From Chloroflexota bacterium (GTDB taxonomy: Bacteria; Chloroflexota; Dehalococcoidia; Lucifugimonadales; UBA3495), in NCBI GenBank assembly GCA_028875055.1, contig JAPPGG010000043.1, positions 65,272 to 129,271 of the forward strand: DNA of 64,000 nt, read 5' to 3'. The translations under genes were made by a program, and so were the position numbers. Numbering within the stretch: the first letter of the stretch is position 1; each line of letters starts with the position of its first letter. Positions 7,258-42,760 of this stretch are shown here, piece by piece. The notes below the pieces were generated by a model. The model did no database searches and was not told the origin of the DNA. It worked only from the letters and a program-made list of their open reading frames with translations.

Positions 7258-7542
7258 ACGCCTTCTCCCCGGGTCACTGGCGTGGTATGGAGGGCTGGTT
7301 GCGCTGGAACTGCTGCCGGAAATGCCGGAATAACCGGAGCTACTGGAGGAACTGCCGGTGGAATCGTACCACATTGCGGCTCAGGGGGCTGGCGGCGATG
7401 GCGCCTTGACTGTGAGCCAGGCCGAAGGTCACGGGATGACAGTCATTTAAGGTGAGATTGCCCTGCGCCAAATACGCGCATTCTTGACACTCCCCGGAGC
7501 CGGTTGTATCCTTTTGGCCGATAGTCAAAGGGAGGTTTTACC

Positions 7543-8001
7543 TTGTCCACCCCTGCCAATTTCCTTACCGAAGAGATGCGCCAGCAGGCGATTGGCGTGG
7601 AGAGTCCGCCGGTAACTTTTGAAGTGGAGAAGGGGCACATCCTCCGTTTTGCCGAAGCCATCGGCGATCCCAATCCCCAGTACACCGACGAGGCCGAAGC
7701 CCGTAGGGGCCGGAACGGGGGCCTGGTAGCGCCGCCGACTTTCCTGCGTTCCGTGCGGGGAGTTAACCTGGAGTTGCCCTTCGAGCTTTCCTTCAGCCGG
7801 AGGCTGGACGGCGGCAGCGACTGGGAATACTTCCATCCGGTGCGCCCGGGGGACCGCATCACCGCAGTGGCCCGCGTGGCCGAAATGACCGAGCGGTCCG
7901 GCCGGCTGGGCACGATGGTCTTTATGACGACCATTACTACCTACTCCAACCAGTTTGAAGAAGTGGTAGCCACCCAGACCAACACACTGATAGCATATTA
8001 G
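7543..8001 (+). CDS. MaoC/FAS1-like dehydratase, N-terminal-type hot-dog subunit
   Basis: 152 aa, TTG start after AAGGGAGG. F.EAIGDPNP.YTD motif. Paired with the following MaoC subunit as in HadAB-type or split hydratase-2 enzymes. Confidence 0.75.
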   Translation: MSTPANFLTEEMRQQAIGVESPPVTFEVEKGHILRFAEAIGDPNPQYTDEAEARRGRNGGLVAPPTFLRSVRGVNLELPFELSFSRRLDGGSDWEYFHPVRPGDRITAVARVAEMTERSGRLGTMVFMTTITTYSNQFEEVVATQTNTLIAY

Positions 8002-8087: not shown

Positions 8088-8522
8088 ATGGCCGACCAGG
8101 TTTACTGGGAAGACGTAACCGAGGGCATGGAGTTGCCCTCGATAGTCAAGGAGCCCACCACTCGCCAGCTGGTGCAGTACGCCGGCGCCTCCGGTGATTT
8201 CTACGAGATCCACTACGACAAGGACTTTGCCATCGGCAACCAGCTGGATGGGCCCATACTGCACGGCGCCCTGAAGAGCGCCTTCCTGGGGCAGCTGGTA
8301 ACCGACTGGATTGGCCCGCTGGGCACGTTGAAGCGCCTGCAGTGCCAGTACCGGGGCATGGACGCCCCGGGCAACCCCATTACGGCCAGGGGCACCGTCA
8401 CCCGCAAGTACGAGGAAGACGGCCTGCGCCTGGTGGACTGCGAAATTCGCCTGGAAAACGCCGAGGGGCAAAACACTACCCCCGGGTATGCCACGGTGAT
8501 TTTACCCAGCCGGAACGGGTAG
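8088..8522 (+). CDS. MaoC-family (R)-specific enoyl-CoA hydratase hot-dog subunit
   Basis: 144 aa. YAGASGDFYEIHYDKDFA hydratase-2 motif. Confidence 0.82.
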   Translation: MADQVYWEDVTEGMELPSIVKEPTTRQLVQYAGASGDFYEIHYDKDFAIGNQLDGPILHGALKSAFLGQLVTDWIGPLGTLKRLQCQYRGMDAPGNPITARGTVTRKYEEDGLRLVDCEIRLENAEGQNTTPGYATVILPSRNG

Positions 8523-8527
8523 CGGCT

Positions 8528-9070
8528 ATGAGCGTACCAGCGATACCGGCCCCGAGACCAGGTGGGCACACCCCTGAAGGCTACCTGCAGATGAGCAACC
8601 ATTACTTGGAGCAATCCAAGGTGGAGTTGCAGGCGGGCGACTTGGTTCAAGCGTCCGAAAAGCTCTCTGGTTCCGTAGCAACCGCATTGAAAGCTATAGC
8701 CCAGCAGAGGGAGTGGCGGCATGACAGTCATGCTCTGCGGCATGCAGTAGTCTCTCAGCTAGGAACAGAACTGGGACCGTCCACTCCATCGGCTCAAGCT
8801 TTGTACCAAGGCAGGGATGCAGGAGACATCCACCATGAGAGTTTTTTTGAAAACTTTCTTTACGAGGACGATGTTCTCTATGCAATTGAAGCCACTGAAT
8901 CTTTTGTGCGAACGATAGAACAACTTATGGACCTCCCACCCAGACCTTTCACGGTAGCCAGGCCTCTGGACAGCCACCGCATCGCCCAATTAACCGGCTA
9001 CGAACCCGACTTGGGCGCCACCGATGCCCTTGGATTCGCCAACTTTGCGGGTGAAGTTCGGGAAGGTTAG
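8528..9070 (+). CDS. Hypothetical all-alpha protein, PaREP1-like (tentative); paralogue of 10078..10443
   Basis: Start taken at ATG 8528, 6 nt after the MaoC stop. Shares QASEKLSGSVATALKAIA / H.LRHAV..L..ELG / F.ENF.YED with QGSEKLWGSASHAVMALA / H.LKRAV..L..ETG / FHANYYHGF in the paralogue. The family name is from memory only. Confidence 0.6.
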   Translation: MSVPAIPAPRPGGHTPEGYLQMSNHYLEQSKVELQAGDLVQASEKLSGSVATALKAIAQQREWRHDSHALRHAVVSQLGTELGPSTPSAQALYQGRDAGDIHHESFFENFLYEDDVLYAIEATESFVRTIEQLMDLPPRPFTVARPLDSHRIAQLTGYEPDLGATDALGFANFAGEVREG

Positions 9071-10077: not shown

Positions 10078-10443
10078 GTGGTTAGACAAATGACAATTGA
10101 AGATCACTTGCAAACCGCCCTGGAATTTCTGGAGCGATCTCGGCAGGAGTTTGCCGAAGGAGATGAAATGCAAGGGTCTGAAAAGCTATGGGGGTCTGCT
10201 TCCCATGCGGTGATGGCGTTGGCACTGCGGCGCGGCTGGCCCATCAACAAGCACAGCGACCTTAAGAGAGCGGTTAATGACTTGTCACAGGAAACTGGCG
10301 ACCAAGCCATGAAAGCGAACTTTGCCGTTGCCGAAAAGTTCCATGCCAACTACTACCACGGCTTTATGGATGACTTTCAAATTGTGGATGACAGGCCCTT
10401 GGTAGAAGACTTCGTATCTCAACTGCTGGCTCTGGCTGCTTAA
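10078..10443 (+). CDS. Hypothetical all-alpha protein, PaREP1-like (tentative); paralogue of 8528..9070
   Basis: 121 aa, GTG start after GGAG. See the motif alignment given for 8528..9070. Confidence 0.6.
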   Translation: MVRQMTIEDHLQTALEFLERSRQEFAEGDEMQGSEKLWGSASHAVMALALRRGWPINKHSDLKRAVNDLSQETGDQAMKANFAVAEKFHANYYHGFMDDFQIVDDRPLVEDFVSQLLALAA

Positions 10444-10515: not shown

Positions 10516-11436
10516 ATGCCCAACCTTCTTGAGAACAAAGTTGCAATCGTAACCGGCTCCGGCCGTGGCGTCGGCAAGGGCGTGGCCCTGCAGATGGCCG
10601 CCGAGGGAGCCAGGGTGGTGGTCGTTGACCCCGGGGTAAACCTGGACGGCAGCGGCTCTGACCAGTCCATCGCCGAGCAGGTGGCGGCGGAGATTCGCGA
10701 GTCCGGCGGCGAGGCTGTGGCCTGCCAGGAGTCGGTGGCCACCATGGAGGGCGGCGAGACCATCGTCCAGACCGCCATTGACGCCTACGGCAAGCTGGAC
10801 GCCGTCGTCACCTGCCACGGAATCCTGCGGGACCGGATGATCTTCAATATGAGCGAGCAGGAGTGGGACGACGTCATTGCGGTGCACCTCAAGGGCACCT
10901 TTACCGTCATCAAGCACGCCTGCATTCTCTTCCGGCAGCAGCGGTCGGGCCGGGTAATCACCTTCAGTTCCACCTCCGGCCTGTACGGCAATTCGGGCCA
11001 GGCCAACTACGGCGCGGCCAAGGACGGCATAGCCGGGTTTACGCGGGTGGTGTCCCGGGACATGGGACGCTACGGCGTTACCGCCAACTCCATCGCCCCC
11101 AGCGCCCAGACCCGGATGATCGGCAGCGTACCCGACGAGGCCCGGGACCTGAGGGCGTCGCGGGGCATGAGCGGCGGCAACGTGGGCGGACTGCGGGGAG
11201 AGCCCGAGGATGTGGCCCCCTTCGTAACGTGGCTGGCCTCCGATGAAGCGGCCCACGTCAACGGCCATGTTTTCTACGTCACCGAGGGCCTGGTGAGCAT
11301 GCTCAACGAACCGGAACCGGTCCGGACCATGCACAAGGACGGCCGCTGGACGGTAGAGGAAATTATTCGGGTATTCCCCGCCACCCTGGGCGTGGAGTTG
11401 CATAACCCCGCGCCTGCGCCGCCGCCGGCGGTGTAG
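10516..11436 (+). CDS. SDR oxidoreductase, paralogue of 9120..10037
   Basis: VAIVTGSGRGVGKG, HGILRDRMIFNMSEQEWDDVIAVHLKGTF, NYGAAKDGIAGFT. Collinear with the upstream SDR over the whole length. Confidence 0.85.
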   Translation: MPNLLENKVAIVTGSGRGVGKGVALQMAAEGARVVVVDPGVNLDGSGSDQSIAEQVAAEIRESGGEAVACQESVATMEGGETIVQTAIDAYGKLDAVVTCHGILRDRMIFNMSEQEWDDVIAVHLKGTFTVIKHACILFRQQRSGRVITFSSTSGLYGNSGQANYGAAKDGIAGFTRVVSRDMGRYGVTANSIAPSAQTRMIGSVPDEARDLRASRGMSGGNVGGLRGEPEDVAPFVTWLASDEAAHVNGHVFYVTEGLVSMLNEPEPVRTMHKDGRWTVEEIIRVFPATLGVELHNPAPAPPPAV

Positions 11437-11495: not shown

Positions 11496-13766
11496 TTGAG
11501 CACCACAATCTTCAAGAAAGTAGATTATGAGCTATCGGGTTTAGTCAATGACATTGGTATAGGAAGAATAGGATTACCCGACATTCAACGCCCCTTTGTA
11601 TGGAGGAATGTTAAGGTTCGGGACTTGTTCGATTCCATGTACAAGGGATTTCCGGTAGGTTATCTGCTTCTTTGGGAAAATGGCACGGGAGATGGCAACC
11701 GCCATATAGGTACAGACAGCAAACAAGTTGCCCCCCAATTGGTAATCGTTGATGGACAGCAGCGCCTTACGTCTCTTTATGCGGTCGTCAGGGATGTACC
11801 GGTGTTGCGGGAAAATTATCGCTCCGAAAACATTCGCATAGCCTTCAACCCCGTCGAGGAAAAGTTTGAGGTCACTAATGCCGCCATCCGCAGGAATAAG
11901 TCCTACATTCCAGATATTTCACAAGTTTGGAGCAATGAAACAGATATATTTCAGGTAGTTGACGATTACCTAGAAGGACTCAGAACTTTACAGGAAGTTT
12001 CTCGTGAGGAGCAGGCAAGAATCAGGAGTTCATTCATAAGGCTTCAGGGACTTAGCAGCTTCCCTTTTACTGCATTGCAGTTGGATGCCAACGTATCGGA
12101 GCAGGATGTGTCCGACGTTTTTGTCCGCATCAACAGTCAGGGTGCTACGCTTAATCAAGCGGATTTCATTCTGACCTTGATGTCCGTGTTCTGGGACGAA
12201 GGGCGGTCCGAGCTGGAGGAGTTCTGTCGCCAGGCCCGTCAACCTACGAGTTTGGGACAGAGTTCTCCTTTCAACTACTTCGTAGAACCCTCCCCTGATC
12301 AGTTGCTTCGAGTTAGTGTAGGAGTTGCCTTTAAGCGAGCCAGATTAGAGTACATTTACTCAATACTCCGAGGAAAGGACCTTGAAAGCGGTGAGTTTAG
12401 TGATGCCCGCAGAGACGCCCAGTTTGACTTGCTAAAGGCGTCCCAAGCCAAGGTCTTGAATTTAAACCACTGGAAAGGGTTCTTGGCTTGCATCCGTCAG
12501 GCTGGCTTCCGGAGCCGTCGCAACATAATGTCTCAGGTCGCACTCTTTTATTCCTACGTGTTATACCTAATAGGAAAGACTGAGTGCCGGGTTGAAGAAC
12601 AAACTTTGCGCCGCCTTATTGCTCAATGGTTCTACATGGCGTCCCTTACTGGTCGATACACCGGAAACTCAGAGACAGCTATGGAAGCCGATCTGGCTTT
12701 GCTTCGAGGGGTCACTGAACCCGAGAGATTTGTCGAACGTCTTCGGAGTGTTTGCGCCACAGTTTTGACTAACGACTTTTGGAATGTTACTTTGCCCAAT
12801 AGCTTGGCAACTCAAACGGCCCGGAGCCCTTCTCTCTTTGCTTATGAGGCTTCGTTGGTTCTTTTGGACGCCAAGGTTCTGTTTTCCGAGGCTAAAGTCT
12901 CTGAATTGCTGGACCCGGTAGCTCAGGGAACCAGGGCGGCCTTGGAACGCCATCACTTGTTTCCTAGGGCTTACCTCGAAAGACAGGGGATATCTGGAAC
13001 TCAGCATTCTAATCAGATTGCGAATTTCGCCTACCTGGAATGGGGTGATAACGTTCGAATTTCTGATCGACCGCCCGCAGAGTATGTTCCCACGGTAAGC
13101 GAGAATTTCCGTGCCGATGAGCTGAGCAGAATGTACTATTGGCATGCTCTACCCAATGGCTGGGAAACCATGGCCTACGAGTCTTTCTTGCCATTGCGTC
13201 GTGACTTAATGGCAAAAGTTACCCGGGAAGGCTACCAGCGCCTGTCCGTTTGGGATGGGGAAGAAGAGCCTGATCTGCCTGTCAATGTGGCTACTGGAAC
13301 ATACGAATTAGTAGAGAGCGGGGAAACAGACGCCGTAGAGTTCAAGTCCACACTACGCACCAACCTGCGAACCAACAGCAAAGACAGCCGAATGGAACAA
13401 ACCGTGCTGAAAACCTTAGCTGCTTTCTTGAACACAAACGGAGGAACGTTGCTAATCGGTGTGGCAGACGATGGTGCTCCAGTGGGTATTGAAGCAGACG
13501 GGTTTTCCAGTGAAGACGATATGAGCCTACACTTGGTAAATATTGTCAACAGTCGTATGAGCCCTCAGGCTATGGCACGAACACACGTTAGCTTCGACGA
13601 TTATGAGGATGTGCGGGTAATGCGAATAAATTGCCAGCGGTCGATGGCTCCCGTATATGTTAGAGAGAATAGCAACGAATCTTTCTTTATTCGGACGGGA
13701 CCTTCATCTCGTGAACTAACAATCAGTGAAGCTCAAGACTATATTGCTCACAGATTTAGTTCCTAA
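11496..13766 (+). CDS. GmrSD-like DUF262/DUF1524 nuclease fused to a C-terminal AlbA_2 (Schlafen-type) domain; putative type IV restriction or defence enzyme
   Basis: DIQRPFVW and VDGQQRLTSLYAV (DUF262). ERHHLFPRAYL...NQIANFAYLEWGDN (His-Me/DUF1524-like). C-terminus DAVEFKSTLRTN...LAAFLNTNGGTLLIGVADDGAPVGIE (AlbA_2). TTG start after GGAAGGTGGG. Clearly lower GC than the flanks. Confidence 0.8.
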   Translation: MSTTIFKKVDYELSGLVNDIGIGRIGLPDIQRPFVWRNVKVRDLFDSMYKGFPVGYLLLWENGTGDGNRHIGTDSKQVAPQLVIVDGQQRLTSLYAVVRDVPVLRENYRSENIRIAFNPVEEKFEVTNAAIRRNKSYIPDISQVWSNETDIFQVVDDYLEGLRTLQEVSREEQARIRSSFIRLQGLSSFPFTALQLDANVSEQDVSDVFVRINSQGATLNQADFILTLMSVFWDEGRSELEEFCRQARQPTSLGQSSPFNYFVEPSPDQLLRVSVGVAFKRARLEYIYSILRGKDLESGEFSDARRDAQFDLLKASQAKVLNLNHWKGFLACIRQAGFRSRRNIMSQVALFYSYVLYLIGKTECRVEEQTLRRLIAQWFYMASLTGRYTGNSETAMEADLALLRGVTEPERFVERLRSVCATVLTNDFWNVTLPNSLATQTARSPSLFAYEASLVLLDAKVLFSEAKVSELLDPVAQGTRAALERHHLFPRAYLERQGISGTQHSNQIANFAYLEWGDNVRISDRPPAEYVPTVSENFRADELSRMYYWHALPNGWETMAYESFLPLRRDLMAKVTREGYQRLSVWDGEEEPDLPVNVATGTYELVESGETDAVEFKSTLRTNLRTNSKDSRMEQTVLKTLAAFLNTNGGTLLIGVADDGAPVGIEADGFSSEDDMSLHLVNIVNSRMSPQAMARTHVSFDDYEDVRVMRINCQRSMAPVYVRENSNESFFIRTGPSSRELTISEAQDYIAHRFSS

Positions 13767-13864
13767 TCTATAGTTAGTAGATTGGCCCCACATCTGTTCG
13801 CATTGCCAAGGGCTCTACAATAGTTAGGCAAGAAAATCTATCTGGATGATTAGAGGTTTTACCC

Positions 13865-15019
13865 ATGTTTCGCAGTTTTAGCGCTTCCTATGCCGGGCAC
13901 GTGGTGGACGACAACCTGGGCTTCGAGGGCACCCCGGCCAACGACCGCAACTATCCCAACGAGAAGCTGGCCGCCGCCTTTGACTGGGCCCTGGACTTCT
14001 CGCGTCACCTGGAGAGCCTGGGCTATGATGAGTTCTGGATGGCGGAGCACCACTTCCAGCCGGAAGGGTACGAGTGCATCCCCAACCTGCTGATGCTGAG
14101 CCTCTACCTGGCATCCAACACCGACCGGCTCAAGTACGGCTGCGGCTTCAACATCACCCCCATGTGGCATCCCCTGCGGCTGGCCGAGGACTTTGCCATG
14201 GCCGACATTCTGACCAGGGGCCGGGTAATTTTCGGCGTGGGTCGCGGGTACCACACCCGCGAGGTGGAAACTTTTGCCGCTCCCATGCTGGACGGCGACG
14301 CCAACCGGGAACTGTTCGAGGAGCAGATCGAGGTACTGGTAAAGGCCTTTTCCCAGGAGTTCTTCTCCCACGAGGGCAAGCATTACAAGTTCCCCGCCGA
14401 CGTTCCCTACCGCGGCTACCAGCTGGAGAAGATCAGCCTGGTGCCCCGGCCCATAAGCCAGCCGGTGGAAATCTGGCAGCCGCTGGTCAGCGGCAATCCC
14501 AAGGGTGTGGACTTCATGGGCAAGATGGGCATCAAGGCCCTGATCGCCAATACTCCGGAGCCCGTTTTGCACGAGCGCCTGGAGATGTACCAACAGGGCG
14601 CCGCGGCCCACGGCCGGGAAATCGCCCTGGGCGAGGACGTGGCCCTGGGGTACCGGTTCTTTATCGGCGACACCAGGGAGAAGGCGATTGAAGAGGCGCG
14701 CCCCTACTTTGAAGAGGCGATGAAGTTTGCAGCGCCCCTGGGGCTGATGCGCCTGAGCCAGGAGCAGATTGACGAGGTAGCCAGGCCCGGGCGTCCCCAG
14801 GGCATCGAGCTGCCGACGCTGGAAGAGGCTGTGGAAAACAACGTGTGGCTGTGCGGCCCCGCCGAACAGATAGCGGAGCACCTGATGAGCGTTGAGGAAA
14901 AGTACCCCGGCGTGGAGAGGGTGAACCTGGGCGCGGTAATGGGCATGCCGCAGAAGGTTTTCAAGGACCAGCTTACCAAGTTCGCCGAGGGGGTGTTCCC
15001 CCTGATGCAGGGCCGGTAA
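13865..15019 (+). CDS. LLM-class (luciferase-like) flavin/F420-dependent oxidoreductase
   Basis: 384 aa. LGYDEFWMAEHHF, ADILTRGRVIFGVGRGYH motifs. Confidence 0.85.
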   Translation: MFRSFSASYAGHVVDDNLGFEGTPANDRNYPNEKLAAAFDWALDFSRHLESLGYDEFWMAEHHFQPEGYECIPNLLMLSLYLASNTDRLKYGCGFNITPMWHPLRLAEDFAMADILTRGRVIFGVGRGYHTREVETFAAPMLDGDANRELFEEQIEVLVKAFSQEFFSHEGKHYKFPADVPYRGYQLEKISLVPRPISQPVEIWQPLVSGNPKGVDFMGKMGIKALIANTPEPVLHERLEMYQQGAAAHGREIALGEDVALGYRFFIGDTREKAIEEARPYFEEAMKFAAPLGLMRLSQEQIDEVARPGRPQGIELPTLEEAVENNVWLCGPAEQIAEHLMSVEEKYPGVERVNLGAVMGMPQKVFKDQLTKFAEGVFPLMQGR

Positions 15020-15061: not shown

Positions 15062-15113
15062 GCGAAGAGACACTAAGGGTCCGTACCTTCCCCTGGTGTC
15101 TCTTCGCCTTTTT
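15062..15113 (+). terminator. Candidate intrinsic terminator of the LLM gene
   Basis: 12-bp stem GCGAAGAGACAC (15062-15073) / GTGTCTCTTCGC (15096-15107) followed by CTTTTTC. The 22-nt loop is long, and the hairpin overlaps the 3' end of the convergent gene. Confidence 0.45.
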
Positions 15114-15645
15114 CGTGGAACTGAATTTCCGTTGGCCCGGTGGGGTAAAGGGGATGGGTCAGGTAGTGCCAGGTCAGCACGCCGCGCAGGCCCTGGAAGA
15201 AGAGGTAGGCGAAGACCAGGTTGAGGACCAGGGACACGGGATTGAGGTTGCCGGGCCCCAATCCTGCCAGCGCCAGTCCGAACAGGACGGACTTGCTGAT
15301 CAGTTGATACCCCAGCAGCGCCGCGGCCATCGCCCGATTTCGCCTGAGAACACCGACGGCCAGGGCCGCAACCAGTCCCGCTTCCACCAGGACGAAGATG
15401 AACTCCCCTCGGCTGGGCCGGACCACCCCCTCAACGCCCGAGTCGCCCACAAAGTAGGTGGACATTATCACGATGAAGTTGATGGTGGCTGCCGCCAGCC
15501 CCGCGCCGAACCCCCACCGAATCCGTTTACGGGCCTGCAGCAAGTCCGTGCCTATCAGCCACGGGTTGGGGCTCGAAGCCGGCGTCAAGGCATGATCGCT
15601 TTCGGTGGAGTCCGGGTCCGCTTCCTGCCTGTTTTGCTCCTCCAT
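15073..15645 (-). CDS. Hypothetical integral membrane protein (about 4 TM helices)
   Basis: Hydrophobic segments (GAGLAAATINFIVIMSTYFV, FIFVLVEAGLVAALAVGVL, AAALLGYQLISKSVLFGLALAGL, SLVLNLVFAYLFF). Start taken at MEEQN (15645), 8 nt after the trxB stop. Confidence 0.6.
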   Translation of the reverse strand: MEEQNRQEADPDSTESDHALTPASSPNPWLIGTDLLQARKRIRWGFGAGLAAATINFIVIMSTYFVGDSGVEGVVRPSRGEFIFVLVEAGLVAALAVGVLRRNRAMAAALLGYQLISKSVLFGLALAGLGPGNLNPVSLVLNLVFAYLFFQGLRGVLTWHYLTHPLYPTGPTEIQFHEKGEETPGEGTDP

Positions 15646-15652
15646 TCCTGGC

Positions 15653-16597
15653 CTAACCCCGCAGCCGCTTGAAGGCGGCGATGGCGGCGGTGGCCCCGTC
15701 TCCGGCGGCGGCAACAAGCTGGGCCGCCGAATGCTGGCGGACGTCGCCCACGGCGTAGAGCCCCGGTTCGACAGTCTCCATGGACAGGTTGACCGGAATG
15801 TGCCCCCCGTTGTCCGTCTCCACCAGGCCGCGCACCAGTCCGGAGTTAGGCTCCAGCCCCACGTAAACGAAAAGGCTGCTCAAATCTACGTGGCTCTCTT
15901 CGCCGGTGGCCGTGTTGAGGATTCGGGCGCCGGTGACCATGCTGTCACCCAGCACCTCGGTAACCGTGGTATTCCAGTGGATTGTGACCTTCGGGTGTTC
16001 CTGGAGTCGCTGCTGCAGGACGTGCTGGGCCCGCAACTGGTCCCGCCGGTGGAAGAGCAAAACCTTGTCGGCGTACTCGGTAAGGGTCAGCGCCTCATCG
16101 GCGGCCGAATCGCCGCCCCCGACCACGCCCACCGTCTGGCCCATGCTCATGGGGCCGTCGCAGGTGGCGCAGTGGGAAACGCCCCGGTCGCGATACTCCT
16201 CCTCGCCCGGTATTCCTGCCGAACGAAGACTGGAACCGGTGGCAATTATCACGGCCCGGGCCCGATAGCTGCCGCTGTAGCCGGTAACCTGCTTGAAGTC
16301 GCCATCGCGGGAGACCTCGGTAGCCTCGTCCATGATGAACCGCATACCCGCGTTCATGGCCTGCTCCTGCAGCAGGGGACCGAGTTCGGCGCCCGAAACG
16401 CCTTCAGGGAAGCCGGGGAAGTTCTCGATACGCTCTACGTTGATTATCTGGGCGCCGCCTATCATCTGCTCGATGAGGGCGGTGGACAGGCCGTAGCGGG
16501 CGGCGTACATGCCCGCCGTCAGGCCGGCCAGGCCGCCGCCAACTATCAGAAGGTCATAGGTGTCAGTACCGGCCACGTCGGTACCTCCGGTAGGCAA
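15653..16597 (-). CDS. trxB: Thioredoxin-disulfide reductase
   Basis: YDLLIVGGGLAGLTAG FAD motif, redox-active CATCDG, GGGDSA NADPH motif, 314 aa. Confidence 0.92.
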   Translation of the reverse strand: MPTGGTDVAGTDTYDLLIVGGGLAGLTAGMYAARYGLSTALIEQMIGGAQIINVERIENFPGFPEGVSGAELGPLLQEQAMNAGMRFIMDEATEVSRDGDFKQVTGYSGSYRARAVIIATGSSLRSAGIPGEEEYRDRGVSHCATCDGPMSMGQTVGVVGGGDSAADEALTLTEYADKVLLFHRRDQLRAQHVLQQRLQEHPKVTIHWNTTVTEVLGDSMVTGARILNTATGEESHVDLSSLFVYVGLEPNSGLVRGLVETDNGGHIPVNLSMETVEPGLYAVGDVRQHSAAQLVAAAGDGATAAIAAFKRLRG

Positions 16598-19780: not shown

Positions 19781-20014
19781 GGTTGGGACCCTTGGGGAGT
19801 GTTGTGTCGGAGACTGGCCTATGGAACCGCGGGAACTATCTTTTCTTGCCTGGCGTGCGTAGGTCGCTATTCATCGAGAGGCCATTCTAATTCAAGAGTT
19901 GCAAGTCCGAATCGGAATGCCCAAACGAAATTGAAAGCTTCCAAAATGGGCTGCCACGAAGGGCCGACACAGCTAATCAATGGCTGCCCCTAATCTCTCA
20001 TCTTGGAATCGCCG

Positions 20015-20226
20015 TTATCTACTGAAAGACTTCCTGGGCAGTCCTGATTGACGAATCATGCTACTGAGTGTCCCCGCTTTAATATCCTGGTTCCGTCGAG
20101 AGTAGCTTACAGTGACTGACTTTCGCTGCCCGTTAACGTAACCTTCGTATATGTGATGAGATCCTCTCTGCTATCAAGGTGAAAACCGTTAACTACCAAT
20201 ATATCCACGAACCTGCCATAACTCAC
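20015..20226 (-). pseudogene. hicA: HicA-like mRNA-interferase toxin gene with a 1-nt deletion frameshift
   Basis: Own translation. GTG at 20226 overlaps the upstream stop (GTGA) and gives VSYGRFVDILVVNGFHLDSRE, then goes out of frame. The adjacent frame reads RGSHHIYEGYVNGQRKSVTVSYSRRNQDIKAGTLSSMIRQSGLPRKSF*. Together they form the HicA pattern (GF.l.rq.GSHH.y ... GTL..I.kq.GL). The 212-nt length is not a multiple of 3. The shift lies near 20166-20175. Confidence 0.65.
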
Positions 20227-20624
20227 GTCGTAGCATATTCAAAAGTTTCCTGGACAGTGCCTTTCGGCCCATTGTTGGAAACAGGTCTGAGGAGGCCAGT
20301 TATCCTGGACAACAGCACCAACTTAATGCGAATGGCAAGGGGAGAGCGACGAGTCAAGAACTTCAAACGCTCATGTTGTGGAAGGGAGTGAACGTATTCC
20401 ACATAAGTTTCAATGGCGCCTTTTAGCTGCTCAAAGGCCTCCTCATAGGTTTCGCCTTGGGCGGCTATATCAAAGTCCACGCAAAGAGCTTCCCATTCGT
20501 CATCGCTTCGCCAAAGGTAACACTTGAGAACAGTGCTTACCACAGCAAAAACCTCCGGTCGCGTATCTGTGGGGGGATCTCCCGCCGCAAGAGTTATCTT
20601 GCCAACTTCACGCGTTGATTCCAC
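20223..20624 (-). CDS. hicB: HicB-like antitoxin-fold protein (UPF0150/HicB N-terminal domain)
   Basis: KCYLWRSDDEWEALCVDFDIAAQGETYEEAFEQLKGAIETYVEYV matches the HicB beta-alpha fold pattern (..GeT.eEA..n..eAie). GTG start after AAGGAAAGG. Lower-GC neighbourhood. No obvious RHH/HTH tail. Confidence 0.6.
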   Translation of the reverse strand: MESTREVGKITLAAGDPPTDTRPEVFAVVSTVLKCYLWRSDDEWEALCVDFDIAAQGETYEEAFEQLKGAIETYVEYVHSLPQHERLKFLTRRSPLAIRIKLVLLSRITGLLRPVSNNGPKGTVQETFEYATT

Positions 20625-20755
20625 CTTTCCTTACCCTTCCTGCCTGCCTCGTGGTGGGAGCGTTTGCGAGTTGGTTGCTCACCCTAAACCACGATGTGCC
20701 CTTTGGACATGGGGGCCTAGAAAGGATTGATCCTTCAAAGCCAAAACAATAGAGG

Positions 20756-21112
20756 CTACACCAGAAGGGCGTCGGTGGGGATTAAGCGCTGGCCCGCGGG
20801 GTCAACCGCCAGGAGGGCGCGCTCCAAGGTGTAGACGCCCAGCAGCGCATCGGCGTTGTCATCTCCGAAGACAACCACGGTGTTAACGATTTGACCCTCG
20901 AGGCGAACCTGGGTTTCACCGATGGCCCGCTGTATTGTGGATCCGTTTGCCAGGCGGAACCTGACGTTTTCGGTGGGTTGGACGCCCAGATTGCGAAGCA
21001 AAGTTGCGGGTACCTGCGTGAAGGTAGCTCCGGTGTCAACCAGGGCCATTACTTCCTGGAACTCGCTGGCGTTGGGGCCAGTGATTTCCAACGGGTAATG
21101 GAAGATGCTCAT
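20756..21112 (-). CDS. Single-domain retropepsin-like (clan AA) aspartyl protease
   Basis: ALVDTGATFTQVP contains the D-T-G-A active-site motif. About 118 aa, consistent with a homodimeric half-pepsin. An upstream ATG at 21136 is also possible. Confidence 0.7.
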   Translation of the reverse strand: MSIFHYPLEITGPNASEFQEVMALVDTGATFTQVPATLLRNLGVQPTENVRFRLANGSTIQRAIGETQVRLEGQIVNTVVVFGDDNADALLGVYTLERALLAVDPAGQRLIPTDALLV

Positions 21113-31278: not shown

Positions 31279-32430
31279 CTAGTCCTCGATGGCGACCCCG
31301 TCAACAAAGGGACGAAGGGAGTGGCCGCAGCGAACCTGGGCGCTTACCCGGACGCCGACTTCATACTCGTCGGTATGGGAGAGCAGGCTGCGAACCGTCA
31401 CGCCGCAGTCCAGGGCAACCCAGTACAGGTAGAAGGCGCCCCGGAACTCCCGCTCCACGATGACACCGTTGCCTTCCGCCGAAGGGTAGCAGTCGATACA
31501 GTCGGGGCGGACCATGGCCTCCAGGACACCCTCCCGACGCAGGCCGGACCGCCACCGGGTGGAGCCTATGGAGGTTGAGAAGGTTTCGCCATCCCGCTGG
31601 CCGGGTACGAAGTCCACCATTCCGATGAATTCGGCGACGAACTTGCTGCGGGGGCGGTGGAAAATCTCCTCGGGGGTCCCCTGCTGCTCGATGCGGCCCC
31701 GGTTCATAACAGCGATGGTGTCGCCCACGTACATTGCCTCTTCCTGGTCGTGGGTTACGAAGACGGCGGTGATGCCGCTGGAACGCAGGATGGCAACGAC
31801 GTCGCGGCGCACCTGCTCGCGGAGACCGGGGTCCAGGTTGGAGAAAGGCTCGTCCAGGAGAAGCAGCTCGGGACGGGGAGCCAGGGCCCGGGCCAGGGCC
31901 ACCCGCTGCTGTTGGCCACCGGAAAGTTCGTAGGGCATGCGCTGGGTCAGGCCTTCCAGGCCGGTCAGCTGCACAACTTCGGCCACCCGCTGGGAGCGGT
32001 CCTCACCCTTGGGAAGCCCGTAGGCAATGTTCTGCTCCACGGTCAGGTGGGGAAAGAGCGCGCCTTCCTGGAACACCATGCCAACCCGGCGCTTTTCGGG
32101 GGGAGTGCAGACGCCCTGATCATAAACGGTCTCGGAGGCCACCTTGATGGCGCCCGCGTCGGGGTTGGAGAATCCGGCCATCAGGCGAAGGGCCGTGGTC
32201 TTGCCGCAGCCGCTGGGACCCAGAAGGGCCAGAATGCGACCCCTGGCAACCTGGACGCTGAAACCGTCAAGGGCGACTACGCCGTTGAACCGCTTTACCA
32301 GGTCGAGGCATTCCACCATAGGTTCGTCTTCGCCCCCACCCAACTCCCAATCTGCGGCGCCGCTGCTGGAATCCGCTTCTTGAATCGGCTCCTGCGGGGA
32401 AGTGGCGGCAAGTAGTTCCCTGATTACCAA
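31279..32430 (-). CDS. ABC transporter ATP-binding protein (FbpC/PotA type, with C-terminal TOBE-like domain)
   Basis: Walker A GPSGCGKTT, signature LSGGQQQRVALARAL, Walker B LLLLDEPFSNLD. TTG at 32430 has GGAGG 6 nt upstream. Alternative ATG at 32319 (MVECLD). Confidence 0.88.
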   Translation of the reverse strand: MVIRELLAATSPQEPIQEADSSSGAADWELGGGEDEPMVECLDLVKRFNGVVALDGFSVQVARGRILALLGPSGCGKTTALRLMAGFSNPDAGAIKVASETVYDQGVCTPPEKRRVGMVFQEGALFPHLTVEQNIAYGLPKGEDRSQRVAEVVQLTGLEGLTQRMPYELSGGQQQRVALARALAPRPELLLLDEPFSNLDPGLREQVRRDVVAILRSSGITAVFVTHDQEEAMYVGDTIAVMNRGRIEQQGTPEEIFHRPRSKFVAEFIGMVDFVPGQRDGETFSTSIGSTRWRSGLRREGVLEAMVRPDCIDCYPSAEGNGVIVEREFRGAFYLYWVALDCGVTVRSLLSHTDEYEVGVRVSAQVRCGHSLRPFVDGVAIED

Positions 32431-32941
32431 AGACAGCCTCCGTACACTACAGGGCTTCGATAGACCACTGATATCACCGCATCAGCAATCCTGCCCTGTA
32501 AGCGCATTATATCTTCATCGTCTATTCATCGCCATCTTTTAAGCCGACACAATAATATCGGTTATGACAGACGAATGCAATAGTTTTCGCATATTGATTG
32601 GCCGGAACATACCGCAGTTTGTTTCAAGTGAATTACGCCAACTATCCTCTTATGGTTGGCTATCCGGCGCTGTGTTTCTAAACTGCAATTGTTCGCAATT
32701 TCACTAATTCGGCAACTGGCAGGGATGGCGTAAGCAGACCAACCCTTGGGCTTTTAACCCCGCTCTCCAGAGCCCCCGACGGGGTGTAAAGTAAGAGGTC
32801 TCAAGCCCCGATTCCAGGCCAGACCTCCCTTACCAGCAGTGATTGAGGGCCGCGCAGGGCACAGGTCCCTTTCTGCAATATTGAAACCGGTTTGCGCTCA
32901 GGCTCACTGCCGGCAACACAGGCCAATACCGGTCAAGTATG

Positions 32942-32970
32942 TTGACACTAATAACTAACAGTGTTATAGT
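32942..32970 (+). promoter_or_regulatory. Consensus-like sigma-70 promoter with an embedded palindrome, upstream of the Fe(III)-type ABC binding-protein gene
   Basis: TTGACA (32942-32947), 17-nt spacer, TATAGT (32965-32970). Perfect 5-1-5 palindrome TAACA-G-TGTTA (32956-32966) overlaps the -10. About 200 nt before the ATG at 33171. Confidence 0.55.
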
Positions 32971-33170
32971 CAGCAATCAGTTCAATAGATATAGTAACTA
33001 AAAAACAATGTATATACTTATACCCAGTATTCAGGCAGACCGTTTCATCTCCTTTGGCAGCATTCCTCCCTGGCAGTGGGGATGGTCTTCCTCCAGGTAT
33101 TTTGAGCAAGGCGGCGACTGGTAGCGGGAGGAGATTCTGCAGATCTATTGAGGCGAAAAGGAGGGTATGA

Positions 33171-34238
33171 ATGACTGGAGTTTTGCTTAATGGCCGTTTG
33201 GCCTTGTTGATGATGATAACCGCCGGCTGTCTGGCTCTGCTTGTGAGCGGGTGCACCCGCGAGGTTATCAAGGAAGTGCCCGTAGAGGTTGTGGTAGAAA
33301 AGGAAGTGGACCCCGGGAAGCTGGTGGTTTACTCCGGCCGCAGTGAGTCGCTGGTGGACAATATCATCCAGCAGTTCGCCGAGGCTACCGGCATCGACGT
33401 GGAGGTGAGATACGCCAACACGGGCCAGCTGGCGGCCACGCTGCTGGAAGAGGGGGATAACTCGCCCGCGGACCTCTTCTTCGCCCAGGACCCCGGCGGC
33501 CTGGGGGCCGTGGACTCCATGCTGGAAACCCTGCCGGCGGACCTGCTGCAACAGGTGCCGGAGTGGGCAAGGTCGCCCCAGGGCAACTGGGTAGGCATAT
33601 CCGGACGTGCCCGGACGGTGGTTTACAATACCGACAACCTGGATGAGGCGGACCTGCCCGACGACATGTCCGGCTTTACGGACCCGGCATGGCGGGACCG
33701 CATTGGCTGGGCCCCCACCAACGCCTCATTCCAGACCATGGTGACGGCCATGCGCAGCCAGTGGGGAGAAGAGCGGACGCGGGAATGGCTGGAGGGGGTT
33801 CAGGCCAACAACCCCAAGGTTTACCCCAAGAACACGCCCCAGGTGGCGGCGGCGGCCTCGGGCGAAATTGACGTGGGTTTCGTTAACCATTACTACCTGT
33901 TCCGGTTCCTGGCCGAGGAGGGCGACGACTTTTCGGCGCGCAATTACCACCCCAGGGCCGGCGGGCCGGGCGCCATGGTAATGGTGGCCGGGGCCGGCAT
34001 TCTCACCGGCGCCGAAAACGAGGAAAACGCCGAGAGGTTCCTGGAGTTCATGCTGTCGCCGGTGGCCCAGCAGTACTTCGCCGGTCAAACTTTCGAATAC
34101 CCGCTGGTGGAAGGGGTCAAGACCCAGCGAATCCTGATAGAGCTGGACGACATTGTGAAGCCCGACCTGACCGCGGGAGACCTGACGGACCTGGCCGGTA
34201 CCCAGGCCATGTTGCAGGAGACGGGAGTTCTGCCATAA
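33171..34238 (+). CDS. ABC transporter substrate-binding lipoprotein, Fe(III)/FbpA-AfuA-like (family 1)
   Basis: Signal peptide and lipobox LLVSGC. LVVYSGRSESLVD.II..F...TGI.V.V.Y is typical of iron(III)/thiamine-type SBPs. The exact ligand was not determined. Confidence 0.75.
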   Translation: MTGVLLNGRLALLMMITAGCLALLVSGCTREVIKEVPVEVVVEKEVDPGKLVVYSGRSESLVDNIIQQFAEATGIDVEVRYANTGQLAATLLEEGDNSPADLFFAQDPGGLGAVDSMLETLPADLLQQVPEWARSPQGNWVGISGRARTVVYNTDNLDEADLPDDMSGFTDPAWRDRIGWAPTNASFQTMVTAMRSQWGEERTREWLEGVQANNPKVYPKNTPQVAAAASGEIDVGFVNHYYLFRFLAEEGDDFSARNYHPRAGGPGAMVMVAGAGILTGAENEENAERFLEFMLSPVAQQYFAGQTFEYPLVEGVKTQRILIELDDIVKPDLTAGDLTDLAGTQAMLQETGVLP

Positions 34239-37917: not shown

Positions 37918-39798
37918 TTACTGGGCTGCGCGAAGCAGGTTCCAGTGGCTGGTCTTTGAACCGGCGGTGCCGGGGAAGGTCCAGCTCTCAACCACGTCGG
38001 GGTTGAACATGACCGTCAGGCTGAACCAGAAGAAGGGGATGTCGGCAAAGTTGTAGAACTTGTCGTCGCCCACTTCCAGGAGCAGCTCGTTGATCCGGTC
38101 GTAGTCCGCGGTATCCAGGGCCTGGTAAGCGGCATAATTGCGCTCAATGATGTCGGAGTAGTATCCGGCGCCGCCCACGCCCTGCGCGGAGGACCAGCTG
38201 CGCAGCCGGTTGGTCAGGGACCGCATGGTGATTACGTTGCCCCAACCGCCCTTCTTGATGAAGTCGGTGCGCTCACGGTAGTTCTTGCGGACGGTACCCC
38301 ACTCGCTGTCCAGCAGGGTGACGTCGATGCCGATGGGCTCCCAGTAGTTGATGAGAGCTTCCAGCATTACCGCGGTTTCCGGCTCATCAGCGGAGAAGTA
38401 GTTGTAGGAAGTGAAGGGCATGGGGTTGTCCGGGCTGAAGCCAGCCTGGGCCATAAGCTGCTTTGCCGCTTCCTGGTCGTAGCCATAATACTCTTCCCAG
38501 TCCGCTTCCCACTGTTCGTTCCAGGTACCGAGGACGGGGTGATACTGGGTCAGCAGCATCAGTTCGCCGTCGCCCTTAAGGACGTGGTCCAGCATTTCCT
38601 GCCGGTTGATGGCCTTGTTCATGGCCTGGCGTACCATCTTGCCGGTTTCGGGGCTTGCCCAGGGTACGCTGGGGTCATAGTCATCCTGGTAGGCGCCGTA
38701 GTACTGGCCGCCCAGGAACATGGTCAGGTAGTTGGTGGGCACGCCGGCCGCGGCGGGCTGCATGCCGCGCCTTCCGGCTTCCAGCTGCAGTTCGCGAGAC
38801 AGGGCCGCGACGTGAATCTCGCCGGTGAGCAGGGCCGCCAGGCGAGTCAGGTCCTCGCGGACCCAGCGCAGTTCCACTTCATCGAAGTCGGGATTCTCGC
38901 CGCGCCAGTGGGGCTGGGCGGCCTTCTCGAACCAGATGCTCTGGCCCAGGGTCTTGCCGCCGTACTGGTAGGAACCGGTGCCGGCCGGCTGTTCGTCGAA
39001 GCCCTCGACGCCAACGTCGTCAAACTGCTTCTTGCTGAGCATCATAATTTCGCCGCCGCCAAAGCCGCGGGAAACGATGGAGGGCGTGTCCAGGGCGATG
39101 GACGGGAAGGTCAGTTCCACGGTGTAGTCGTCCAGCGCCTGGTAGGTGGCCCCATTGAAGAATGAGACCGCGGATACCTGCGAATCTTCACCGAGAATCC
39201 GGTCAAAGGACGATACAACGTCCGCAGAGGTGAATTCCCCGTAATCGAAGTGGAAGGGAACTCCCTCTTCCAGGTGGAAGGTCCAGACCCGGCCGTCGGG
39301 AGAGGACTCCCAGGACTTGGCCAGGCGGGGGATGCGCTCGTTGGTCTGGGCGTCCAGGCCAATCAGGGTTTCCGAGTAGGGGTCAAACTGATAGTAGGAA
39401 GGTCGGCCGACGGTCCAGTGCCGGTTGGTTTCCTGCACTTCGCCCAGGGCGTAGATTACGCGTTCGACCTTTGCCTCAACCTCTTCCATCATTGCGGGGA
39501 TGGGGGTCGGGGTGGCGATGACTGTCTTTTCGACGACGGTTTCCTTGGGTACTTCCTTCAGCACCTCAACTTCCTTGACAACCTCGACTTCCCTGACTAC
39601 CTCTCTCTCTACCTCTACGGGTACCTCGACTTCCTTGACAACCTCGACTTCCTTGGGGACCTCTACGGTTACCTCTCTGACAACCTCCTTTTCGATAACC
39701 TCGGGGGCAGCGGAACCGCAGGCCACCACGAAGGCGAGCACACTAATCAAGACACCAGCTAATAGTGCGCGGGGTCCCTTTTTCGACCAAAAACCCAT
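37918..39798 (-). CDS. ABC transporter substrate-binding lipoprotein, family 5 (peptide/nickel type), with Val/Glu-repeat tether
   Basis: Start at ATG 39798 after GGGGAGG. Lipobox LAFVVACGS. (EV.KEV.V)n linker. Family-5 core similar to 40082..41965. Confidence 0.85.
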   Translation of the reverse strand: MGFWSKKGPRALLAGVLISVLAFVVACGSAAPEVIEKEVVREVTVEVPKEVEVVKEVEVPVEVEREVVREVEVVKEVEVLKEVPKETVVEKTVIATPTPIPAMMEEVEAKVERVIYALGEVQETNRHWTVGRPSYYQFDPYSETLIGLDAQTNERIPRLAKSWESSPDGRVWTFHLEEGVPFHFDYGEFTSADVVSSFDRILGEDSQVSAVSFFNGATYQALDDYTVELTFPSIALDTPSIVSRGFGGGEIMMLSKKQFDDVGVEGFDEQPAGTGSYQYGGKTLGQSIWFEKAAQPHWRGENPDFDEVELRWVREDLTRLAALLTGEIHVAALSRELQLEAGRRGMQPAAAGVPTNYLTMFLGGQYYGAYQDDYDPSVPWASPETGKMVRQAMNKAINRQEMLDHVLKGDGELMLLTQYHPVLGTWNEQWEADWEEYYGYDQEAAKQLMAQAGFSPDNPMPFTSYNYFSADEPETAVMLEALINYWEPIGIDVTLLDSEWGTVRKNYRERTDFIKKGGWGNVITMRSLTNRLRSWSSAQGVGGAGYYSDIIERNYAAYQALDTADYDRINELLLEVGDDKFYNFADIPFFWFSLTVMFNPDVVESWTFPGTAGSKTSHWNLLRAAQ

Positions 39799-39988
39799 TA
39801 TAAAGTTACCTCCCCAATTCTTAACTTGGGATACAAGCTTCCGGAAGGCGAAGACGCCTTGTCCTCCCGGAAATCTGCCCGAGTATAGACCCTCGTTTTT
39901 TGGGGTGTCAATTGCACATATTCCGTTATATTTGCGGGTTCTTAAATGCATTGGTGTACAGTTTCACGACATATTGCGATAAATCACA

Positions 39989-40029
39989 CAATAAAAGACG
40001 GCTTACGTGAACAATTCAGTAAGCCGTCT
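39989..40029 (-). terminator. Intrinsic terminator after the upstream binding-protein gene
   Basis: On the minus strand: AGACGGCTTAC, 12-nt loop, GTAAGCCGTCT (11-bp perfect stem), followed by TTTTATT. Confidence 0.75.
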
Positions 40030-40081
40030 GATATCTAAAGCGGTACGGCGATCTGGCAGACCGCCGTTGGCGAGAATATCG

Positions 40082-41965: not shown

Positions 41966-42387
41966 GGATGTCACCTCCCAATTTCAGGGCTTCGAGTTCA
42001 GGGTTCCGCCGCTGTGGTCAGGTATGAATCCGCGTTGGGTAGAACGACCCTTTACGAATTTCGGGCAGTATATTTTATGCCTTTGTTAATTGTCAACACG
42101 CCATAGTTTTTTAATTAGTGGCTTGTTTCATTATATTTTAGGCTATTAGTCACGATTTCCTCATATTATTAACTGAATAAAAGCGGATTTTACGTCACCA
42201 TTATATACTCGATTCCCGGTGATATATAGTTGTTACCCTATGCTTATCGTAACTATTTCTGGAGTAATGAGCTTTATCAGTTCAACAGCAATGCATTGCT
42301 GCGACCAGGCAGGTTACGGCGGCCTTTTGGGGAAAAATCGCGTCGAAAGGGCCCTGCCAGCCCTTCGGTGGAGAGGCGTTACGGTGG

Positions 42388-42583
42388 CAGGGCAATTGCA
42401 CTATGGAAACAGGCTACAGGGGGCACAATTCGGTGGGCAGATGTCATGTCGCCCTGAGCGTGCCGAAGGGCCTGAAGTCCTCATCCTCAGCCCGGCTGCG
42501 GGTAGTGAAGGTGGTTCCAGGGATAGATCTTAGATGCTTCGGCTTCGCTCAGCATGACATTCAATTAAAACGCTATTGCCCTG
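42388..42583. repeat. MITE-like repeat, family A, copy 2 (inverted orientation)
   Basis: CAGGGCAATTGCA ... CGCTATTGCCCTG. The interior is the reverse complement of copies 1 and 3. Confidence 0.85.
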
Positions 42584-42760
42584 GTTACGGTCGGCAGTGC
42601 CGAGTATTGACATACCCATATCGGTAGAATATATTGCCTAAACGCCAAGGCCAGGCGGAATTGACAACTCTTGGCCCTGTTGTTGTGCCTTCTTTCGGAT
42701 AGCCAGGCGGGCGTGTCCAGGTAGCAGCCGACCCGTCCTGGGGCCTTCAGGAAAAGCGAT

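Follow-up and report, generated by a model that had tools for sequence, protein, structure and literature searches.

A Schlafen domain on a BrxU-like GmrSD-family core: a probable anti-phage gene in a turnover slot of a marine Chloroflexota metabolic operon

We describe a gene of an uncultured marine bacterium of the Chloroflexota (Dehalococcoidia; Lucifugimonadales; UBA3495) that encodes a 756-residue protein in which a BrxU-like core of the GmrSD family (residues 1-585) is joined to a C-terminal Schlafen (AlbA_2) domain. The gene lies at 11496..13766 on the forward strand of the analyzed stretch of DNA, hereafter the window, which comprises 64,000 nucleotides (contig JAPPGG010000043.1 of assembly GCA_028875055.1, positions 65,272 to 129,271). 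It is very probably a defense gene of the DUF262-Schlafen class, and we put at about 70% the probability of the fuller interpretation, in which it is a functional, horizontally acquired, stand-alone anti-phage gene of that class built on a BrxU-like chassis, with a dual mechanism that we infer by analogy. Proteins of this kind are very common and usually annotated just as "DUF262 domain-containing protein"; they can now be read as a BrxU-like chassis with a Schlafen site that appears catalytically intact.

The core of the protein is collinear with BrxU

The open reading frame (ORF) is intact, its stop codon included in the coordinates above, and its TTG start agrees with the N-termini of more than 120 full-length homologues. 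Pfam recognizes two domains in the protein, GmrSD_N/DUF262 (residues 14-226, E 4.9e-31) and SLFN_AlbA_2 (residues 610-741, E 2.8e-18), and a search of NCBIfam matched no family. These assignments bear out much of an initial annotation that had been made from the sequence alone: the 756-residue ORF and the motifs that it quoted (DIQRPFVW, VDGQQRLTSL and ERHHLFP) are exactly present, the motifs that it ascribed to DUF262 fall in a DUF262 domain, and the C-terminal ~130 residues that it likened to an AlbA_2 or Schlafen module are matched as such. Compared with the homologous gene of the related locus L001, the ratio of non-synonymous to synonymous substitutions (dN/dS) is 0.074. The gene is thus under strong purifying selection, and on this ground we consider it functional.

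Among PADLOC models the best match is HEC-05 (E 6e-31), which aligns to the N-terminal part of the protein, with a second, collinear stretch between residues 334-575 and profile positions 354-588 of 600 (E 8e-6). HEC-05 is BrxU at 99.2% identity (Payne et al., bioRxiv 10.1101/2024.01.29.577857). When a profile built from 49 diverse relatives was compared with BrxU itself (7P9K), the match had an E value of 7.4e-25 and comprised three collinear stretches, pairing residues 12-241, 331-385 and 488-581 with BrxU 7-268, 333-390 and 481-579. An AlphaFold model on the same 49-sequence alignment, with a mean predicted local distance difference test score (pLDDT) of 89.4 and a predicted template modeling score (pTM) of 0.71, has BrxU as its best Foldseek match in the PDB (E 3.6e-13, probability 1.0, 654 aligned columns, 580-residue chain). 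Identity in the structural alignment is only ~16%, and the modest TM-score is consistent with the known flexibility of the BrxU domains (PMC8565348). A first model, made from 24 close homologues, was poor (pLDDT 63.5) and matched AlbA_2 only; it was replaced by the model described here. Profile and fold together firmly place residues 1-585 as a BrxU-like, PADLOC HEC-05-type core of the GmrSD family.

The motifs of the N-terminal domain point the same way. Conservation in the core was counted in the alignment of 49 relatives (Table 1). Besides the DGQQR motif, whose predicted function follows that shown by the BrxU mutants Q101A and R102A, the domain carries a counterpart of RLFDS, a motif that was defined in BrxU together with the role of its S42 (PMC8565348) and that is absent from EcoCTGmrSD, SspE and HEC-06 (Payne et al., bioRxiv 10.1101/2024.01.29.577857).

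The third collinear stretch contains the ERHHLFP...NQIANFAYLEWGDN block of the protein. Its putative active-site residues are E484, H486, H487, P490, N506, N510, E515 and N519, positions 484 and 515 being E or D across relatives, and conservation runs from 88 to 98% (H486 47/49, H487 45/49, N510 48/49, N519 44/49 and N506 43/49). An E-x-H-H start is a classical HNH signature. In the model, strands at 483-487 (LERHH) and 511-515 (AYLEW) are followed by a helix at 516-522, and the region holds equivalents of BrxU H475, N519 and E528. Alignment and predicted fold thus identify the center as a putative HNH (His-Me finger) module collinear with the DUF1524 domain of BrxU.

The Schlafen domain carries a complete predicted RNase site

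Behind the core and a flexible linker, the AlbA_2 domain is predicted with high confidence (pLDDT 90-97), so that the module is intact in the model, and Foldseek matches it to Schlafen-type folds, namely DIP2311, the tRNase/DNA-binding domain of SAMD9, and SLFN5, SLFN11, SLFN12, SLFN13 and SLFN14. A profile of the domain finds SLFN13 (E 5.8e-6), SLFN11 (9e-6), and SLFN14 and SLFN12 (2e-5). Across 35 species-level sequences, E610, E615, K617, R621, N623, D630, D658 and R733 are invariant. In the alignments with SLFN proteins, E610 and E615 pair with the glutamates of SESxxIEFK; the catalytic residues of SLFN13 are E205, E210 and D248 (PMC5862951), and the motif Ex4(E/D)xK defines the prokaryotic Schlafen nucleases (PMC13056530).

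The characterized prokaryotic Schlafen domains considered here are tRNase effectors in defense, namely RorSlfn5 (PMC13056530), Cash (PMC13462974) and SLFN-pAgo. Because the Ex4ExK...D site is invariant and aligned to the SLFN13 triad, and because the characterized prokaryotic Schlafens are tRNase effectors, the AlbA_2 module is probably an RNase rather than a mere binding module. The initial annotation had taken it for a nucleic-acid-binding module, a view that the complete site in 35 of 35 sequences makes the less likely one.

The gene is an insertion in a metabolic operon and its alleles turn over

Upstream of the gene lie PaREP1, SDR, PaREP1/HEPN and SDR genes, and downstream a luciferase-like monooxygenase (LLM) gene, a 214-residue ORF without Pfam match and a thioredoxin-reductase-like gene. 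In at least 18 more distantly related metagenomic loci, the two SDR paralogues and the LLM gene (SDR1-SDR2-LLM) are contiguous, with a gap of 20-170 nt between SDR2 and LLM, which proves that the gene is an insertion into a metabolic operon, as its interruption of an SDR/LLM block had first suggested. Its composition marks it as foreign DNA: G+C content is 48.7% and G+C content at third codon positions (GC3) 0.505, between flanks of 66.3% and 0.857 (SDR2) and 62.6% and 0.849 (LLM), in a window with a mean G+C content of 60.9%. The low G+C content noted at the outset therefore holds for the gene as a whole, while the 60-nt line of ~38% then given as an example (11521-11580) exists but is one of only 3 among the 37 lines of the gene at or below 40%. 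A scan for promoters and terminators returned matches at background frequency.

In this clade five genomes, that of the window and those of the loci L001, L003, L004 and L088, have the slot filled. In L001, L003 and L004 the gene directly follows a MaoC-MaoC-SDR-SDR array, and in L088 it stands between SDR2 and LLM. Identity of the gene to that of the window falls from 87% (L001) through 76% (L003) and 64% (L004) to 62% (L088), and the identity of the flanks fails to track it, being 91-95% in L001, 92-95% in L004 and 97-98% in L088. The genes of L004 and L088 are 75% identical to each other, so that two allele groups can be told apart, A (window, L001 and L003) and B (L004 and L088); GC3 is ~0.5 in all alleles except that of L003 (0.69). 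Simple vertical inheritance, which the synteny of L001, L003 and L004 would suggest, is rejected on account of the L004 and L088 alleles, 62-64% identical to the window gene within flanks of 92-98% identity. The locus is a clean natural example of the turnover of a defense cassette in a metabolic operon of an uncultured marine bacterium, with empty sites, allele groups of ~62% identity in near-identical genomes and a persistently foreign codon composition as its signs.

No direct or inverted repeats flank the gene, no integrase or transposase adjoins it, and the window contains no tRNA gene; an integrative element is rejected on these grounds, and cassette replacement through flanking homology is favored. 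Directly downstream of the gene in L003, positions 12381-12683 encode a 103-residue fragment that is 68% identical to the 3' part of SDR2 and is called as a 104-residue gene without Pfam match. This fragment may be a recombination footprint of cassette placement.

Relatives reside in Type I restriction-modification operons and vary at their C-terminus

The family extends far beyond this lineage. The pair of DUF262 and AlbA_2 Pfam domains, in proteins of ~750 residues, is carried by more than 120 clusters at 60% identity or above from Bacteria and Archaea, and according to precomputed annotation it is present in all 120 top homologues; some homologues are labeled Dehalococcoidia or Chloroflexi. 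A representative library returned 12,751 matches at E<=1e-3, 783 of them at E<=1e-30, and relatives occur in no fewer than 417 species genomes, which span more than 15 phyla of both domains.

In other lineages, members of the family are recurrent neighbors of Type I restriction-modification (R-M) genes. Of 80 species-level loci, 26 (about one third) have such genes at a distance of 6 kb or less, as do 19 of the 52 loci with adequate flanks. Typically HsdS is encoded directly upstream and HsdR downstream on the same strand, at a median distance of 12 nt in the species-level loci, and in 13 loci the family member adjoins hsdS (upstream), hsdR (downstream) or both on the same strand. Desulfonatronospira thiodismutans and a Methanolobus strain have the order hsdM-hsdS-gene-hsdR with overlapping stop and start codons; such overlaps with hsd neighbors occur in L005 and L006, and L007 likewise shows a Type I R-M operon setting. 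Other recurrent neighbors are EcoEI-type HsdR, N6_N4 and Eco57I/MmeI-type methylases, an HNH_2 endonuclease, a YhcG-type nuclease and HATPase_c_4 proteins. An earlier report likewise found GmrSD-like genes to be commonly located inside Type I R-M and Hma systems (Payne et al., bioRxiv 10.1101/2024.01.29.577857).

The window gene had been described as solitary, with no dnd, ssp, BREX or methyltransferase partner in view. For its own lineage this is right: the neighbors are metabolic, and no ORF of the 64-kb window is matched by HsdM, HsdS, HsdR, N6_N4, Eco57I-type methylase or related R-M seeds, in a seed-based search that is not a complete methyltransferase census. As a description of the family it does not hold, since about one third of the homologues sit inside Type I R-M operons.

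The chassis itself is modular. The ~585-residue core is found alone (~590 residues), with N-terminal Mrr_N or MrcB_N domains in some relatives, and, after the linker at about residue 600, with AlbA_2, RAMA, DUF4268, HEPN or unannotated domains. Core-only relatives stop at about residues 585-590 and the alternative C-terminal domains begin at about 609-631. We take HEPN and DUF4268 to be effector-type nuclease or RNase domains. One relative, P0122 (1194 residues), carries the core followed by AlbA_2, RAMA and DUF4268 in tandem. Several others (P0132, P0136, P0137, P0142, P0143 and more) have N-terminal extensions of 200-460 residues, in which Mrr_N was found in 5 of 17 and MrcB_N in 1 of 17; that of P0132, 418 residues long, has no Pfam match.

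Plasmid-borne relatives are mostly core-only. Carriage of the family by phages was considered and rejected, there being only seven matches, weak, core-only or fragmentary. Core-only relatives are encoded on two human-gut metagenomic contigs labeled "Bacteriophage sp.", MT836124.1 (5537-7306) and MT836158.1 (2861-4669), at 36% and 30% identity over residues 1-583. The chassis without the Schlafen domain is thus present on a small number of mobile or viral elements.

A proposed mechanism and its alternatives

From the domain order, motifs, folds, conservation and genomic behavior set out above, we infer a mechanism by analogy with BrxU and with other Schlafens. Binding and hydrolysis of nucleoside triphosphate (NTP) by the DUF262 domain would drive a dimer-to-monomer cycle, as in BrxU (PMC8565348), and this cycle would license cleavage of invading, probably modified, DNA by the HNH module. 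As a further effector, the Schlafen domain would be a metal-dependent RNase with tRNA as its most likely target, shutting down translation once the core engages foreign DNA and so adding an abortive or growth-arrest layer. The BrxU-type switch between dimer and monomer is a plausible gate for Schlafen activation, because characterized Schlafen nucleases are active only with paired domains (PMC13056530; PMC13462974). Within Type I R-M operons the protein would deal with modified phages against which Type I restriction fails, the part that BrxU plays beside BREX (Payne et al., bioRxiv 10.1101/2024.01.29.577857). In the marine lineage of the window it would act alone, from an operon slot where divergent alleles are exchanged.

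We lean slightly toward both nuclease centers being active; that only the HNH module is catalytic seems improbable, and the same goes for the Schlafen domain as the only catalytic center. The most specific form of the proposal, which we advance tentatively and hold to be less likely than not, is that one polypeptide couples restriction (HNH on modified DNA) with tRNase growth arrest or abortive infection through NTP-gated pairing of Schlafen domains, that the C-terminal slot is an exchangeable "effector bay" (Schlafen, HEPN, DUF4268 or RAMA), and that the solitary alleles are a long-lived polymorphism at an operon-internal slot.

Several observations weigh against the interpretation of the protein as a dual-nuclease defense gene. 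A recognized R-M neighbor is absent in about two thirds of the loci. The Pfam model for GmrSD_C/DUF1524 (PF07510) finds no match in the whole protein at E<=1, none in residues 230-600 or 470-600 at E<=10, and none in any of 66 relatives. The HNH assignment therefore rests on collinearity with BrxU and HEC-05 and on the fold; of the His-Me/DUF1524-like center first proposed, the HH...N...N block, the collinearity and the fold stand, and the match to Pfam DUF1524 does not. The first position of the dyad is H rather than the D of BrxU (HHLFP versus DHIYP), and the HNH stretch aligned to BrxU on its own is a weak match (independent E 1.3). Modules of the DNA-reader type on the same chassis (RAMA at the C-terminus, Mrr_N and MrcB_N at the N-terminus) are compatible with AlbA_2 as a targeting domain. 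That the protein depends on DNA modification and targets tRNA is an extrapolation from BrxU and from other Schlafens. The likeness to the protective fusion EcoSlfn7, described below, is drawn at the level of named domain composition; blastn of a gammaproteobacterial family member, 61% identical, found no similarity in 5,426 complete E. coli genomes, and cluster look-ups returned no names of E. coli.

The protein could be a plain Type IV restriction enzyme, in which the BrxU-like core cuts DNA and AlbA_2 is a non-catalytic binding or reader module like Mrr_N, MrcB_N or RAMA, although we regard this as unlikely. Such a reading would account for relatives in which RAMA takes exactly the same place behind this core, or Mrr_N or MrcB_N precedes it, but the C-terminal position also takes HEPN and DUF4268, presumably effectors, and the presence of AlbA_2 and RAMA together in P0122 indicates that the two are not simple functional substitutes. 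It could further draw on SAMD9, among the top Foldseek matches of the AlbA_2 domain and deposited as a DNA-binding domain with DNA (7ksp), and on those mammalian Schlafens that lack the catalytic residues and have non-nuclease roles (PMC13462974). Against this, a pure binding module has no need of the site that is invariant in 35 of 35 sequences and aligned to the SLFN13 triad, and the prokaryotic Schlafens studied so far act as tRNase effectors.

Another option to which we give little weight is a sensor-effector protein of abortive infection, in which the DUF262-HNH core would do no more than sense phage DNA or proteins under NTP gating and the Schlafen tRNase would be the sole effector. The survey of prokaryotic Schlafens (pSlfn) models its fusions in this way, with fused domains that sense and a Schlafen domain that acts (PMC13056530), and both the exchange of D for H in the dyad and the failure of Pfam DUF1524 to match would suit a core that no longer cuts. 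Yet the HNH residues (E/D484, H486, H487, N506, N510 and N519) are conserved at the levels given above in 49 members that include core-only proteins, which lack a Schlafen domain and would need an effector of their own. The E-x-H-H start, a usual mark of HNH nucleases, likewise argues for a core that cuts.

That the gene does not serve defense, being instead a domesticated housekeeping or regulatory gene of the SDR/LLM operon (for instance in DNA repair or RNA processing) or a functionless Type I R-M orphan, is highly improbable: its place inside the operon in the same orientation and with no terminator, the filled slot in five clade genomes including the window, and the 30% of prokaryotic Schlafen genes without defense neighbors (PMC13056530) would allow it, but the operon works without the gene in at least 18 relatives, the foreign GC3 persists, alleles of 62% identity between flanks of 97-98% denote a cassette turnover typical of defense loci and not of housekeeping genes, a dN/dS of 0.074 excludes a decaying remnant, and the family is elsewhere embedded in R-M systems.

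Comparison with known defense systems

The fusion is not a new kind of system: its architecture is widespread and belongs to a catalogued and phenotypically validated class. The initial annotation could recall no characterized system of this three-domain make-up, yet a 2026 survey of 5,930 prokaryotic Schlafens assigns 1.8% of them to fusions with DUF262, and one such fusion, EcoSlfn7, protected E. coli and reduced plating of T7 ~540-fold, its mechanism not having been dissected (PMC13056530). What we add is the end-to-end assignment of the core to BrxU, the finding that the Schlafen site is intact, the modularity of the C-terminal position and, in a marine genome, a slot in which alleles turn over. 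In a class with a phenotype but no mechanism, the dimer/monomer cycle of BrxU offers a testable gate for Schlafen activation.

Like EcoSlfn7, the window gene combines, by named composition, DUF262 with a Schlafen nuclease in a single-gene system with defense-type genomics (PMC13056530); its host differs in being a high-GC uncultured bacterium, placed in the sea by TARA and other ocean metagenomes. BrxU, the Type IV enzyme of the pEFER BREX island (PDB 7P9K/7P9M), shares with residues 1-585 a collinear order of RLFDS-type motif, DGQQR, helical linker and HNH module, and both kinds of gene are often embedded on the same strand in a larger defense operon. In contrast to BrxU, the window protein has HH in place of DH, lacks a Pfam DUF1524 match and carries an extra Schlafen domain of 150 residues, and its relatives occur in Type I R-M rather than BREX operons. 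Set against those R-M-embedded relatives, the window and its clade show no R-M system and have the gene in a slot inside a metabolic operon.

With SLFN11, SLFN13, RorSlfn5, Cash and SLFN-pAgo the protein shares the AlbA_2 fold and an identical acidic triad plus lysine, and with the pSlfn nucleases the catalytic Ex4(E/D)xK motif. As in the characterized Schlafen tRNases, the effector domain is joined to a sensor or regulator controlling oligomerization, but here the partner is a putative DNase/NTPase and not an Ig-like, Csx15, Argonaute or helicase sensor, and there is a single AlbA_2 lobe, so that an active site would need dimerization.

The initial annotation had placed the architecture with GmrSD, SspE and BrxU together. 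The likeness to BrxU and HEC-05 is collinear, whereas that to SspE is weak and N-terminal only: SspE and EcoCTGmrSD also combine DUF262, with DGQQR, at the N-terminus and an HNH-type nuclease at the C-terminus, but lack the RLFDS-type motif (Payne et al., bioRxiv 10.1101/2024.01.29.577857). Membership in the SspE, Dnd or BREX systems was rejected, as PADLOC SspE models match only the N-terminal part (E 1.5e-4 to 0.03), SspE in the PDB matches residues 2-95 (E 0.073), and the neighbors are metabolic with no partner genes.

Table 1. Coordinates of the gene, its domains and motifs, and its flanks and junctions in the window.
Feature	Position	Strand	Evidence
Complete gene, BrxU-like GmrSD core and C-terminal Schlafen/AlbA_2	11496..13766	+	ORF list; full-length homologues; PADLOC HEC-05 E 6e-31; dN/dS 0.074 versus L001
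DUF262/GmrSD_N (ParB-like NTPase) domain, residues 14-226	11535..12173	+	PF03235 E 4.9e-31; aligns to BrxU 7-268, E 1.5e-21
DIQRPFVW motif, residues 29-36	11580..11603	+	Q31 47/49, R32 48/49; aligned to BrxU PAIQREFVW
RDLFDS, residues 42-47, BrxU-type RLFDS nucleotide-binding/dimer-switch motif (putative)	11619..11636	+	S47 49/49, D46 46/49, R42 44/49; aligned to BrxU RLFDS
DGQQR, residues 86-90, NTP gamma-phosphate/hydrolysis motif (putative)	11751..11765	+	D86 and R90 49/49; G87, Q88 and Q89 at least 47/49
All-helical linker/central domain, residues 227-482	12174..12941	+	AlphaFold2 model m34cbc4bd8bcb, mostly pLDDT >90; collinear with BrxU 333-390 and HEC-05 profile 354-588
Putative HNH/His-Me finger region, residues 483-530	12942..13085	+	Conservation; beta-beta-alpha in model; alignment to BrxU 481-579 (holds N519, E528); Foldseek
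Flexible inter-domain linker, residues ~586-600, fusion point of the variable C-terminal slot	13251..13295	+	pLDDT <50 at 589-599
Schlafen/AlbA_2 domain, residues 610-741	13323..13718	+	PF04326 E 2.8e-18; pLDDT 90-97; Foldseek; SLFN profile matches
Ex4ExK catalytic motif of Schlafen RNases, E610-SDAV-E615-F-K617	13323..13346	+	35/35 species; aligned to SLFN13 SESASIEFK (E205, E210)
D658, predicted third acidic active-site residue, SLFN13 D248 equivalent	13467..13469	+	35/35; aligned to second D of GVDD in SLFN13, SLFN11 and SLFN14
Host flank, SDR paralogue 2, directly before LLM in empty-site relatives	10516..11436	+	Pfam; empty sites in L089, L095, L101, L105 and others
Host flank, luciferase-like monooxygenase (LLM)	13865..15019	+	Bac_luciferase E 3.6e-48; orthologues in 80 metagenome loci
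Upstream junction, similarity to L004 stops at SDR2 stop codon	11437..11495		DNA alignment
Downstream junction, similarity to L004 resumes ~15 nt before LLM ATG; no terminator	13767..13864		DNA alignment; promoter/terminator scan at background level

Other features of the window

Elsewhere in the window, a low-GC islet at 48929-50758 (+) holds a complete two-gene HEC-01 defense system. Its first gene encodes an AAA_21/AAA_15 ATPase that PADLOC HEC-01A matches over the full length (E 2.4e-139), and its second a DUF4276 protein matched by HEC-01B (E 4.9e-54). At 52219-53841 (-), the lowest-GC islet of the window (GC 0.46-0.47) encodes a 541-residue AAA_15/21/23 ATPase whose best PADLOC model is HEC-04 (E 3.4e-39), with those for ATPase-Toprim, PtuA and AriA ranking next; this, too, is probably a defense gene.

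Two small ORFs of the PaREP1/HEPN family, at 8342-9070 (+, C-terminal part) and 10078-10443 (+), with Pfam E values of 4.5e-10 and 2.1e-13, each stand just upstream of one SDR paralogue and are lower in G+C than their flanks; neither has a PADLOC match. The one between SDR1 and SDR2 is 57% identical to its counterpart in the near-conspecific L088, and the SDR1-SDR2 gap is ~60-80 nt in L089, L095, L101 and L105, which leaves no room for such an ORF, and ~500-600 nt in others. This gap seems to be another small site of insertion within the operon.

Additional low-GC islets (below 0.53 over 600 nt, with a window mean of 0.609) are found at 19801-20800, 32201-33400, 39401-40400 and 41601-42800. 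The last three hold no convincing ORF or annotation. The first contains a 135-residue ORF at 20226-20630 (-) with a weak match to DUF7387, which looks like a HicB-type antitoxin. ORFs at 7443-7934 (-, 163 residues) and 15073-15717 (-, 214 residues) have no Pfam match; the latter looks by eye like a membrane protein, and an unannotated ORF of similar size is present at the same position in L001 and L004.

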